Positions 88 to 4,495 are shown, numbered from the stretch's first letter. The stretch is 4,495 nt of DNA from Dictyostelium discoideum (GCA_000004695.1 CH709173.1:1-4495); one strand, 5' to 3'. The notes: generated by a model not told the origin, from the sequence alone. Numbers and translations are program-made.

Positions 88-767
88 TTTAAAAGAACTG
101 GTGATTGGTTTTGAAAGCATTGATATTATTGATGAAGTTGAAGAAATCTAAAATAATACTTTTTTTGGTTTTTTTTTAGATTAAATTTGCTTTTAAGGGG
201 GGTTTTTCTTCGCTGTGTATGGATTCTATATTTTTAGCAAATTTACCTATCGATGGGCACTTTTTGAGTTACAAATGAAGAGTCAATTTTTTATTTTGAA
301 ATTTATTCAGGTGTTAAATTATTAATTGAAAAAAAAAATTTTTTAGAATATTTAGATTTCTCAAAAGACTATGAGCAGGGGATTTATAAAAATTATAAAT
401 CTGGAGAACAATTTAAAAAAATAAAAAATTCAATTTTATATAAATTTATTTTATTAAGAATATTTATTGACGGAATGAGTCATCAAGGTAGATCAGATTA
501 TACTATAATGGGGGATTTTGAAAATTATGTTGGCCCATTTTTTAAAATATGCCATGCCAACTTAAAAAATGGACTGGAAATAAAATTGTTTTATTTATTG
601 TTCCAAAAGAATGGTTTTACAATATACATCAAACAATTAAAAAATTATTTTCAGCGCAATTTAATAATAAATTAATAATTAAAGATAATAATGGATATGA
701 TTATGAAATTATAACATATGGATTAACAATCACAGCGGCGAAAATCAACACTTTAAAGCACCTTTAA
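88..767 (+). pseudogene. Degenerate partial paralog (pseudogene fragment) of the C-terminal conserved domain of the gene at 2962..>4495
   Basis: Hand translation matches the downstream protein in four segments. (1) 95-150: ELVIGFESIDIIDEVEEI* vs EFLMLGIENSISLKLLEKF. (2) 219-267: MDSIFLANLPIDGHFL vs MDKLFMEDFQIKGETF. (3) 280-534 in one frame: ESIFYFEIYSGVKLLIEKKNFLEYLDFSKDYEQGIYKNYKSGEQFKKIKNSILYKFILLRIFIDGMSHQGRSDYTIMGDFENYVG vs HSIFYFEIKKVLETLLNKKQFFERIDFDTDFETGIYTNYKSGQQFKDLKNKNKNKIVLLRIFTDSMQCQNKKDYTIMLDIENYIG (about 56% identical by eye). (4) 549-767 in a different frame: KIVLFIVPKEWFYNIHQTIKKLFSAQFNNKLIIKDNNGYDYEIITYGLT vs KLLLFVVPNDWLLNFHQTIRALFSSF/GNGFNLIIENEQIDVIPFGLT. The colinear segments are separated by in-frame stops (taa 148-150, tag 235-237, tga 265-267) and a 29-nt net insertion relative to the downstream copy near 530-600. 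Similarity ends at 767, equivalent to about 4160 in the downstream gene. No zinc-finger or N/E-rich region is present upstream. Confidence 0.6.
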
Positions 768-780
768 ATCCAAGTACTCT

Positions 781-960
781 TTTTAATATATATTAATAAG
801 TATACTTAATAAGTAATACTTATTAAGTATACTTAATAAGTATACTTATTAAGTACACTTTATTAAGTATTACTTAATAAGTATACTTATTAAGTATACT
901 TTATAAGTATACTTTATAAGTACTACTTAATAAGTACACTTATTAATATATATTAATAAT
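781..960. repeat. Array of about 11 palindromic decamers AAGT(A/C)(T/A)ACTT with 12-14 bp period, flanked by inverted termini TTAATATATATTAATAAGT(A/G)TACTT
   Basis: AAGTATACTT is its own reverse complement and contains GTATAC. Copies or variants start at about 799, 813, 827, 840, 852, 866, 881, 893, 905, 917 and 932. 783-807 is the reverse complement of 932-956 with one mismatch, so the whole block is roughly self-complementary. Confidence 0.85.
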
Positions 961-1087
961 TAGTTATTATTCTTTTAAATGTTTTATATGGGAATCGAAC
1001 CCGCGACCTCCCTTTTCAGAAGTTCCGCGGATGGAATATTTTAGATGGGAATCGAACCTGTGACCTCCCTTTCCGGAAGTTCCGTTT

Positions 1088-1093
1088 AAAAAA
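1088..1093 (-). terminator. T6 run on the minus strand, 5 nt downstream of the tRNA-like unit: pol III terminator-like
   Basis: Minus strand reads ...TTCGATTCCCATATGCAACA TTTTTT AAACGG. T-runs of 4 or more terminate pol III. The 3' layout (T-loop, 5 nt, 7 nt, 1 nt, T6) mimics a tRNA gene 3' end. Confidence 0.35.
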
Positions 1094-1101
1094 TGTTGCA
1101 T

Positions 1102-1158
1102 ATGGGAATCGAACCCGTGACCTCTTACATACTAAGCTACCATATGAGCTAAATAAGC
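1102..1158 (-). pseudogene. tRNA-like pseudogene or tRNA-derived pol III unit (A-box-like plus B-box; anticodon arm too short)
   Basis: Minus-strand read: GCTTATTTAGCTCATATGGTAGCTTAGTATGTAAGAGGTCACGGGTTCGATTCCCATATG. TAGCTCATATGG resembles the A-box/D-arm (TRGCNNAGNGG), and the B-box follows about 30 nt later. The T-stem has one mismatch (ACGGG/CCCAT). Only about 16 nt lie between the D-arm and T-stem, where about 22 are needed. No 5' acceptor strand is complementary to the 3' side ATGCAAC. Hence not an intact tRNA. Confidence 0.4.
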
Positions 1159-1775: not shown

Positions 1776-1980
1776 TTTAGGAATTTTTTTTTAACACAAA
1801 AAAAAAATAAAAAATTTTGTAATTTTTTTTTTTTTTAACGAAAAAAATAATATAATAAAATAACAATATAAATAATAATTTAGATAAATAATTGAAATAA
1901 AATAAATAATATGAACACAAGAATAAAAATTTAAATAAAAACAAATATGCTTTATTCACAGCAAAGAAAAATGCACCTTT

Positions 1981-2040
1981 AAAGCCAATTTAAAGCAAAT
2001 ACAATTTAAATTGGCTTTAAATTGGCTTTAAATTTGCTTT
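1981..2040. repeat. Inverted repeat built from mirrored 11-bp units: AAAGCCAATTT-AAAGCAAAT | ACAATTT | AAATTGGCTTT-AAATTGGCTTT-AAATTTGCTTT
   Basis: AAATTGGCTTT (2008-2018, 2019-2029) is the reverse complement of AAAGCCAATTT (1981-1991). AAATTTGCTTT (2030-2040) is the reverse complement of AAAGCAAATTT, matching 1992-2000 with a small insertion. A hairpin or cruciform with tandemly repeated arms can form. Confidence 0.8.
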
Positions 2041-2100
2041 TTAAAAAGGTAATTTTAAAGATATTTTTAAGGTCATTTAAAATTACATTAAAAATGACCT

Positions 2101-2161
2101 TTTAAATTTATTATAAAGCGGTTTTTAAATAATGTTTTAATCACTTTATAATAAATTTAAA
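2101..2161. repeat. Perfect 18-bp inverted repeat TTTAAATTTATTATAAAG ... CTTTATAATAAATTTAAA with a 25-bp spacer
   Basis: 2101-2118 is the exact reverse complement of 2144-2161. Adjacent smaller inverted repeats: AAGGTCATTT 2069-2078 / AAATGACCTT 2092-2101; GTAATTTT 2049-2056 / AAAATTAC 2079-2086; near-palindrome GTAATTTAAAATTAC 2177-2191. Confidence 0.9.
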
Positions 2162-2237
2162 AAAGTTATTTTTAATGTAATTTAAAATTACTTATTAATC
2201 CTTTTTTAAGCTTTTATTAATTATATTTTTTAAAATA

Positions 2238-2270
2238 CATTTTAAATGCATTTTAAATACATTTCAAATC
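2238..2270 (+). repeat. 3 x 11-bp tandem repeat CATTTTAAAT(G/A) / CATTTCAAATC
   Basis: cattttaaatg cattttaaata catttcaaatc read directly. Confidence 0.7.
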
Positions 2271-2302
2271 AATTTTTACACTATTTATTTCAAATTTATT
2301 AT

Positions 2303-2375
2303 AAAAAAAAAAAAAAATAAGAAAATAAAAAAAAAAAAAAAAAAATTAAGAAAATTAAAAAAAAAAAAAAACTAA
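2303..2375. repeat. A-rich low complexity with periodic TAAGAAAAT / TTAAGAAAATT insertions
   Basis: a15 taagaaaat a20 ttaagaaaatt a14 ct a5. Confidence 0.85.
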
Positions 2376-2753
2376 AAAGATAACCAAATTAATTTTAATT
2401 CTTTATTTATTTGTTCCAGTGGCAATTGAATTCTATTATTATTATTTTTATTAATTAATAATAAATAAGTGTTTCAGTTGCCTTGGGTTTTATTTTATGT
2501 TATTTTAAATTTTACTTCTCATTTCAAAAAGCGAAAAATATCAAAAAAAAAAAAAAAAAAAAAATTTAATTATTTGTTTTGCATATTTATATTATAAGTA
2601 TAAACATACATATAAAAAAAGATTTTTTATTTTTTATTTTTTATAATTAATAAACAATTAACGAGTGCACAGGTATATTATTGCATTAGTGTAGTTTTAC
2701 AATAAATTGGGCAGATTTTATAGTTTTTTTTTTTTTTATTTTAAAAAGAAAAA

Positions 2754-2830
2754 GGTATAGACAGGGTCATAGGTTCCCCGTCATTTTTTGAAAATGGGGT
2801 ATATCCCTCTAAATATAAAATTTTAAGTAC
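2754..2830 (+). promoter_or_regulatory. GC-containing island with imperfect palindrome CCCCGTCATTTTTTGAAAATGGGG (2776-2799) and TATA-like ATATAAAA (2813-2820); candidate promoter/enhancer of the gene at 2962
   Basis: It is the only G/C-bearing segment in about 500 bp of >90% AT sequence. It lies about 130-210 bp upstream of an ATG in AAAATG context, and TATA-like elements at 2813-2820 and 2851-2857 follow it. No TSS data are available, so this is positional inference. Confidence 0.3.
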
Positions 2831-2961
2831 TAAATCATATATCTACTTGCTATAATGCTAAAATTTGAATAAAATGAAAAAAAAAAAAAAAAAAAAAACG
2901 TAAAAACTCGAGGAAAAAAAAAAAAAAAAATATTATTTTTAATTTCCAGCCAGCAAACAAA

Positions 2962-4095
2962 ATGAATTTAAATAACATATCATGCATTAATTGCAGAGAA
3001 AAATTAAAGAATTTTAAAAATATTATTATTCATTATATTATGCATAAAAATATATGTCCATTTTGTCTTGCATATTACCGTTCTTATAAACAATTTTATG
3101 ATGTAAATGGACATTTCAACACCAAAAAATGTAAAAATGAACAAAATAAAATTATTACAAATAATCAAAAAAGAGATATCTTTTATAAAAAATTAATGGA
3201 TATTACTGGTGAAAAAATAAAATATCCAACAAATGATCCAGATGACCCATGTAAACATTTATGTAACCAAAACCAAGATGAAATTTTTTATCAAGAAAAT
3301 AATGAAAATAATGAAAATAATCAAACAATTGATAATGTAGAAAATCATGATATAATTGGGTTGGTACATAGTGAAGATGAAAACAATGAAATTAGAATAG
3401 ATGAAAATGAAGCAAACATTAATAATGAAAATAATGAAAATAATGAAAATGAAAATGCTCAAAACGAACCAATAAATAATAATCTAAATAATAATTTAGA
3501 TAATGAAAAATCAAAAAAAAAATTAAATGAGACTGAAATTGAATTTTTAATGTTGGGAATTGAAAACTCAATAAGTTTAAAGCTACTTGAAAAATTTAAA
3601 AGTTTTATTGACAAAAATAAAACCAATTTAAATCAAATAAGATACACACCTCAATATATGGATAAATTATTTATGGAAGATTTTCAAATAAAAGGAGAAA
3701 CATTTATAAATAAAAATTATGATCACTCAATTTTTTATTTTGAAATTAAAAAAGTATTAGAAACTTTATTAAATAAAAAGCAATTTTTTGAAAGAATAGA
3801 TTTTGATACAGATTTTGAAACTGGAATTTATACAAATTATAAAAGTGGTCAACAATTTAAAGATTTAAAAAATAAAAATAAAAATAAAATTGTATTACTT
3901 AGAATATTCACTGATAGTATGCAGTGTCAAAACAAGAAAGATTATACTATAATGCTGGATATAGAAAATTATATTGGAAATGAATTTAAAAATAATAAAT
4001 TATTATTATTTGTAGTACCAAATGATTGGTTACTTAATTTTCATCAAACAATTAGGGCATTGTTTTCATCTTTTTTGGTAATGGCTTTAATTTAA
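2962..4095 (+). CDS. Protein with two N-terminal C2H2-type zinc fingers, an N/E-rich low-complexity linker and a conserved C-terminal domain of unknown function (possible transposase-like or domesticated element protein); segment upstream of a -1 frame break
   Basis: 377-codon ORF from the track. ATG at 2962 in AAAATGAAT context, preceded by an in-frame TAA. Residues 8-28: C-x2-C-x12-H-x3-H with a hydrophobic C-x3-L-x5-I-x2-H pattern (classic C2H2). Residues 32-57: C-x2-C-x15-H-x5-C. Residues about 112-186 are an N/E repeat (NNENNENNE...). Residues about 190-377 are conserved with the upstream pseudogene copy. AT3-biased codon usage is consistent with the surrounding genome. Confidence 0.75.
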   Translation: MNLNNISCINCREKLKNFKNIIIHYIMHKNICPFCLAYYRSYKQFYDVNGHFNTKKCKNEQNKIITNNQKRDIFYKKLMDITGEKIKYPTNDPDDPCKHLCNQNQDEIFYQENNENNENNQTIDNVENHDIIGLVHSEDENNEIRIDENEANINNENNENNENENAQNEPINNNLNNNLDNEKSKKKLNETEIEFLMLGIENSISLKLLEKFKSFIDKNKTNLNQIRYTPQYMDKLFMEDFQIKGETFINKNYDHSIFYFEIKKVLETLLNKKQFFERIDFDTDFETGIYTNYKSGQQFKDLKNKNKNKIVLLRIFTDSMQCQNKKDYTIMLDIENYIGNEFKNNKLLLFVVPNDWLLNFHQTIRALFSSFLVMALI

Positions 4096-4495
4096 TTATT
4101 GAAAATGAACAAATAGATGTTATACCGTTTGGACTGACAATGGATATTCCAGAATTTAGAGCATCGTGTAAACTTAATGGACATAATTCAAATGAATATG
4201 CATGTCACACATGTGACAAACCAAGAGATGGTTTATTTATTTGCCATTCAGGTACATTAACAAAACAAGAAGATATTACAAATTTTCACTCCACCAAACC
4301 AAATTATGCTGAATTAAATGCTGATATAGAATTAAAAAAAATATGGGAAAAAAAAGCAAAAGATATTGGTATCAAAGGTGTGGGCAGAGGGTGGGTCGAA
4401 CCTTTGTCCATTAATTATTTAAAAACACAACCAGACATATTACATAATATTTTATTAGGTGTCGCACAAAGATGTTTATATTACAATTTTGATAA
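4056..4495 (+). CDS. Continuation of the same gene in the -1 frame (3' partial, open to the window end)
   Basis: The frame with codons starting at multiples of 3 is open from 4056 to 4495. Its hand translation begins GIVFIFFGNGFNLIIENEQIDVIPFGLTMDIPEFRASCKLNGHNSNEYACHTCDKPRDGLFICHSG... and continues VGRGWVEPLSINYLKTQPDILHNILLGVAQRCLYYNFD. Its start (FGNGFNLII...IPFGLT) is colinear with the upstream paralog (FNNKLII...ITYGLT). One extra T in the run 4071-4076 would fuse it to the 2962 ORF. Confidence 0.55.

Follow-up and report, generated by a model that had tools for sequence, protein, structure and literature searches.

The ORF1 gene and the elements in the window

The stretch of Dictyostelium discoideum DNA analysed here, called the window throughout, is 4,495 nucleotides long, has a G+C content of 20% and contains long A and T runs. 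Its plus strand carries an open reading frame, ORF1, which starts with an ATG at position 2962 and runs to a TAA stop at 4093–4095 (377 residues). In the −1 frame, a TAG stop at 4053–4055 is followed by 146 open codons, from 4056 to the window end at 4495. The coordinates given in an earlier note on this DNA are confirmed. The probability of a stop is 0.10 per codon at the local composition, which gives P ~1e-7 for 146 open codons, and neither ORF1 segment has a stop in its own frame, compared to 9–78 in the other frames. The two-frame arrangement is therefore real and beyond chance. The frames change over at a run of six thymines (T6, 4071–4076), which forms the heptamer TTTTTTG with the base that follows (4071–4077). 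The upstream frame (2962–4074, plus strand) encodes residues 1–371, which comprise zinc fingers, an Asn/Glu-rich linker and the start of a putative catalytic core, and the continuation in the −1 frame (4077–4495, plus strand), which reads GNGFNLIIENEQIDVIPFGLTMDIPEF..., stays open to the window end. According to the family alignment, the complete ORF1 product is ~850 residues long, and the window holds the first 511 codons.

A search with the frame-corrected C-terminal 326 residues found 24 proteins that are 36–99% identical to the query and are mostly fragments. All of them are D. discoideum 'hypothetical proteins' from AX4 and several new isolate assemblies, and no Pfam domain is found in any of the 24. 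Further members came from cluster look-ups. Their alignment falls into three subfamilies, here given our own labels: A is window-like, B is ~80% identical to the window coding region at the DNA level, and C is ~45% identical at the protein level. More than 40 fragmentary protein models belong to the family, whose members are labelled 'C2H2-type domain-containing' in UniProt. Translation of the plus strand gives a C2H2 finger (C8-x2-C11-x12-H24-x3-H28, 2983–3045) followed by a C2HC unit (C32, C35, H51 and C57, 3055–3132), both kept in all three subfamilies. These two, together with SCKLNGH..ACHTC..ICH, are the C2H2 pair and the Cys/His cluster that the earlier note had pointed out. What it termed a 'zinc-finger / novel-domain gene' is ORF1 of a DNA transposon.

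The gene at 2962–4495 belongs to a multi-copy, cut-and-paste element of ~5 kb, as its termini, target duplications and copy number show. Window positions 1957–4405 are 97.8% identical to positions 5007–7434 of L001, a locus in assembly GCA_054883475.1. The homology starts sharply at window position 1957 with CACAGCAAAGAAAAATGCACC in every copy, and the flanks are unrelated to each other. By this homology to L001, the window contains the 5′ part (about half) of a subfamily-A copy, probably DDT-A-like, which occupies 1957–4495 on the plus strand and runs off the window end. Scanning both strands of the window and of L001 and three further loci (L002–L004) yielded 18 element ends that share CACAGCAAAG...; the ~30 nt common to these ends appear in the window as the terminal inverted repeat 5′-CACAGCAAAGAAAAATGCACCTTTAAAGC (1957–1985, plus strand). 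The paired ends have identical flanking dinucleotides in six of six cases (TA, TT, TA, CT, GG and TA), which indicates a target-site duplication of 2 bp. One pair encloses 5056 bp with ORF1 and a second ORF (L003 6135–11190), one pair in L004 encloses an internally deleted copy, and four pairs enclose derivatives of ~760 bp. Since the gene is ORF1 of a transposon, its frameshift is transposon decay and not the loss of a host gene. For annotation, the 377-residue ORF and the ORF downstream of it are two halves of one transposon gene.

The ~760-bp derivatives are non-autonomous, have CACAGCAAAG termini and 2-bp duplications, and lie at L001 9036–9809 and 11366–12121, L002 2810–3568 and L004 12872–13629. 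They may correspond to the short elements that are known in the literature as DDT-S or thug. The second ORF is conserved 3′ of ORF1 (L003 9680–10665, L004 9622–10596 and L001 9812–10731); it encodes ~270–290 residues that begin MNSSANF..., is without a Pfam domain and probably contains an intron. This two-gene layout recalls En/Spm. The copy at L001 5007–8916 is rearranged: its opposite end carries a second, inverted version (96.8% identity) of the initial 1.1 kb of the element, which corresponds to window 1957–3064 and includes the first 34 codons of ORF1. Next to the elements, these loci contain fragments of retroelements (RVT_1, rve and Phage_integrase).

At least four related elements are nested in the window itself. 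The terminus of one of them (197–217, minus strand, ...CTTCGCTGTG on the plus strand) belongs to an element whose remainder lies to the left, beyond the window. This terminus and another one at 731–751 bracket a fragment of a subfamily-C transposase ORF (218–735, plus strand) that is truncated and has two frameshifts; tblastn of the proteins P0017 and P0020 matches it in pieces that lie in different frames (219–275, 277–546 and 570–735). The earlier note had described the −1 frame downstream of T6 as colinear with a paralogous copy in this part of the window. The colinearity holds, both for the homologues and for the paralogue at 570–735, but the paralogue is itself a broken fragment and belongs to a different subfamily.

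The terminus at 731 (CACAGCGGCGAAAATCAACAC), probably that of a DDT-B element, opens the left end of a related element (731–1150, plus strand) with a palindromic array of 13-nt units and three B boxes. The B boxes are exact copies of GGTTCGATTCC on the minus strand (991–1115) with a period of 57 nt (0 expected by chance) and sit 260–410 nt inside this terminus. An A-box-like TAGCTTAGTAT at 1129–1139 precedes the third B box on the minus strand. No A/B-box motif was seen in the element that starts at 1957, and ARAGORN and Rfam found no tRNA. The array (780–960) is built of ~13-nt units of AAGTATACTTAAT..., its arms (780–860 and 879–959) are 89% complementary, and it recurs at L001 13504–13860. 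Rfam gave only weak, sub-threshold, miRNA-like matches to the palindromic repeats.

The T6 site in other copies

At the site of the frame change, L001 and L004 read TCTTTTATTGG and encode Phe-Ile-Gly in frame; the window and L002 read TCTTTTTTGG, with the T6 run. The wider stretch is TTTTATTGG in the first two and TTTTTTGG in the other two. Ser-Phe-Ile-Gly-Asn-Gly is encoded by TCTTTTATTGGTAATGG in L001 and L004, and the window has TCTTTTTTGGTAATGG at this place. L003, a subfamily-B copy, reads ACATTATTGTG and is one nucleotide longer than the window. In the protein models that span the site, subfamily A has Ile, B has Leu and C has Gln-Phe, always in a single frame, and the homologues, all of them D. 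discoideum 'hypothetical proteins', read ...LFSSF-I-GNGF... without interruption. The earlier note had proposed to look for a continuous frame in other copies, and such a frame is present at this site in more than 15 protein models as well as in L001, L003 and L004.

The comparison with L001–L004 also bears out the placement of the frame switch at T6 (4071–4076, plus strand), where one nucleotide of the ancestral TTTTATT is deleted. Because the base missing relative to the other copies is an A, the ancestor had TTTTATT (Phe-Ile) and not T7, and the loss of this A fused T4 and T2 into T6. The earlier note had taken T7 for the restored state. T7 mends the frame formally, but it encodes Phe where the other copies have Ile.

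The same T6 occurs in L002, which is another copy, has an internal deletion and was assembled independently (GCA_054883475.1); the T6 allele thus exists outside the window record. Copies broken at the same place, along with independent reads of T6, were what the earlier note had named as the sign of a pseudogene, and L002 is one such copy. The last 202 residues of the L002 gene model are identical to AX4 DDB_G0267190, which begins at the first Met past the frameshift site. The window, L002 and the AX4 protein model P0028 have the sub-lineage markers DVIPFG, ICHSGTLTKQ, KKIWEKK, GVGRGW and CLYY in common. The other copies have lesions of their own, namely an 11-bp deletion (L001), three frameshifts (L003) and large internal deletions (L002 and L004). 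The T6 deletion is the sole lesion in the 1533 nt of coding sequence in the window, which points to a young copy and makes the case hinge on a single base. Subfamilies A and B differ with a dN/dS ratio of 0.30; within A the ratio is 0.46, 1.0 and 2.0, from a total of only 7 synonymous and 27 non-synonymous changes. Subject to these very few changes within A, the contrast would be what is usually seen when a master lineage is under selection and its inserted copies decay neutrally.

P0028 is the product of AX4 DDB_G0287249 on chromosome 5, a 'partial' model of 511 residues whose last codon coincides exactly with the window end. P0028 and the corrected window protein differ at three positions, namely V126E, N509I and residue 372, the frameshift site, where P0028 has an in-frame Ile. 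Possibly the window represents the DDB_G0287249 locus in another version or from another strain, in which case T6 would be either a strain variant or an error of the record or assembly.

Such an error could stem from base-calling, from the consensus or from mixed paralogue reads in a repeat, with the true locus being TTTTATT and in frame. The partial P0028 model, with its same end codon, three differences and in-frame Ile at the site, speaks for this explanation, as does the location of the site in a nest of near-identical repeats, where L002, with its T6, is a possible source of mis-assigned reads. However, V126E and N509I are found in none of the four copies examined at the DNA level, nor in any listed family protein, and two differences private to the window are what is expected of a distinct, real copy or strain. 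Furthermore, the A6–A10 runs are more error-prone and are all in frame, and the lesion is a lost A rather than a homopolymer miscount. We therefore regard a faulty record as unlikely, if still a serious competitor, and infer that the deletion is present in the genome and not only in the window record.

The T6 run is best explained, with a probability of about 0.7, as a 1-nt deletion without function in a decaying copy of a D. discoideum DNA transposon, most likely a DDT element. One A would have been lost from TCTTTTATTGG, and the fusion of T4 and T2 into T6 would have shifted the sequence downstream into the −1 frame. Translation from the ATG would end at 4095, between the two candidate catalytic Asp residues. 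With ORF1 cut short there, the window copy would be non-autonomous and decaying within a nest of other broken copies. The earlier note had listed a sequencing error, a 1-bp deletion and, as the least likely, slippage. This ranking was broadly right, and the comparison of copies singles out the 1-bp deletion. The frameshift itself is of minor importance, as it adds an ordinary inactivating mutation to a transposon graveyard, in a known kind of element.

Recoding and splicing

The slippery heptamer proposed in the earlier note is formally present: T TTT TTG at 4071–4077 follows the X XXY YYZ pattern in the upstream frame, and homology to the family proteins carries on in the −1 frame. If −1 ribosomal frameshifting or transcriptional slippage were programmed on U UUU UUG, a full-length protein would result, as in bacterial IS elements. 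This is very improbable here. The two-frame split is not conserved, as L001, L004, L003 and the more than 15 protein models are single-frame with ATT or TTG at the site. The 93 nt downstream of the heptamer (4078–4170) show no structure beyond that of shuffled sequence (MFE −11.9 kcal/mol, z +0.42; 122 of 200 shuffled sequences are at least as stable). TTTTTTG occurs in the window at chance frequency, 10 times compared to 12 expected, and three other T6 runs, two A8 runs and one A10 run in ORF1 are all read in frame. The A runs in the coding sequence (A10 at 3513–3522 and A8 at 4334–4341 and 4348–4355) are more slippage-prone than T6 and are intact.

Bacterial IS1 and IS3 elements keep their split throughout the family, usually with an RNA structure after it. 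The likeness of the window to them is that its transposase-like ORF is divided between two overlapping frames, with the break at a homopolymeric heptamer. Unlike in IS1 and IS3, the split in the window is confined to one copy sub-lineage, the family ancestor was in frame, and there is no RNA structure. The T6 allele, which is found in at least two copies, might permit low-level transcriptional or ribosomal slippage that restores a full-length transposase, with Phe for Ile, from copies that are otherwise dead, but the chance of this is slight. If it were true, it would be a eukaryotic DNA-transposon counterpart of the frameshift control in IS elements.

A short spliceosomal intron that bridges the frame change is about as improbable as any explanation considered here. 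A GT at 4078–4079 and an AG at 4115–4116 do lie in the region of frame overlap, but they delimit the sole GT..AG interval in this zone, which is 39 nt long. As 39 is a multiple of three, removal of such an intron would leave the frame unrepaired. Moreover, positions 4020–4140 align to the coding copies with no gap other than the single nucleotide, and the encoded residues are conserved. The intron reading was rejected on account of this interval and of the colinear coding sequence in the other copies.

Relationships of ORF1 and of the element

The conserved columns of the ORF1 family follow the order D (LLRIFTDS), D (GLTMDIPEF), C(2)C (CHTC), DILH, H(3)H (HLLLH) and E (AETFEAQ). On the plus strand of the window, the candidate for the first catalytic Asp (LLRIFTDSM, codon 3913–3915) is kept in all members that cover it and is located at the end of a predicted strand in a low-confidence AlphaFold2 model. 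The candidate for the second (GLTMDIPEF, codon 4143–4145), likewise of putative function, is the invariant column D395 of alignment A1. Downstream of it are CHTC (4203–4214), in which C415 and C418 are invariant in A1, and DILH (4434–4445), which is kept in subfamilies A, B and C and whose likeness to the D-V-M-H of CACTA TnpD was judged by eye.

Database searches gave little beyond the family itself. The corrected window protein and six family members matched no transposase family in Pfam at E<=1, only sub-threshold noise, and a PDB profile search with ORF1 matched no chain above noise. An exhaustive profile search of 1.84e9 representative proteins returned 21 matches; the nine sequences that were read are all Dictyostelium-type, and no outgroup beyond Dictyostelium was found among them. 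The AlphaFold2 model, built from a 16-row family alignment, has a mean pLDDT of 35 and a pTM of 0.22. The strand-strand-strand-helix-strand order that it predicts around both candidate Asp residues is suggestive only, and with a pLDDT of 35 the model does not establish an RNase H-like fold for ORF1. We infer that ORF1 encodes a putative DDE transposase, an assignment without statistical support from the Pfam, PDB and profile searches.

Several features of the element resemble the signature of the CACTA/Mirage/Chapaev/Transib (CMCT) clade as defined in PMC12730594. The termini are of the 5′-CAC...GTG-3′ type (CACAG...CTGTG), and the target duplication is 2 bp long, compared to 2–5 bp across the clade. 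CHTC and then HLLLH are found between the D of TMDIPEF and the E of AETFEAQ, as in CMCT transposases, and this order is kept in all subfamilies that cover them. In an ungapped comparison, HLLLHYPIYIKNWGAPKYTSAETFEAQL agrees with the plant CACTA sequence VHLxIHLxxEAxLGGPVQYRWMYPIERYL at H, H, G, Y, E and L. The ORF1 family was also compared by hhalign with 15 real plant CACTA transposases (PF02992 and PF13960), and neither the full-length sequences nor the catalytic cores gave a significant match. The best local match, of ACHTC to the plant ACPxC, is non-significant as well (E 0.2, probability 0.3%). PF02992 does not match the ORF1 family at E<=1, and neither Transib nor RAG1 was matched in the PDB search with ORF1. 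The motifs, the termini and the 2-bp duplications fit the CMCT group by reasoning and without statistical support. As a side result, an element with CACAG termini, 2-bp duplications and the D..D..C(2)C..H(3)H..E order has no detectable relative outside Dictyostelium among 1.84 billion representatives, going by the nine of 21 matches that were read.

The DNA transposons of Dictyostelium were reportedly described by Glöckner et al. in 2001 as DDT-A, DDT-B and DDT-S. The element in the window is likewise restricted to D. discoideum, is present in many copies and has inverted termini. DDT elements are mentioned in PMC2665215, PMC4559204 and PMC9012585. They are putative D. discoideum DNA transposons that make up ~20% of the centromeric repeat clusters, where they lie among their own kind (PMC2665215). 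The setting of the window and of the compared loci is the same, where fragmented copies are nested within others of their kind and between DIRS/Skipper-type retroelements, as described in PMC2665215. The DDT-B consensus is 5471 bp long and has an A/B-box motif in nt 1–428 that is used as an integration target by TRE5-A (PMC9012585). The L003 copy is close to it in length (5056 bp), and the terminus at window position 731 resembles DDT-B in having B boxes within ~400 nt of the element end. By comparison with the published descriptions of DDT elements, the subfamily-A element is probably a member of the DDT family. By the same likeness, subfamily A probably corresponds to DDT-A, and subfamily C together with the terminus at 731 to DDT-B. 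If the CMCT link were confirmed, the long-unclassified DDT elements would gain a superfamily assignment, which would be of modest use.
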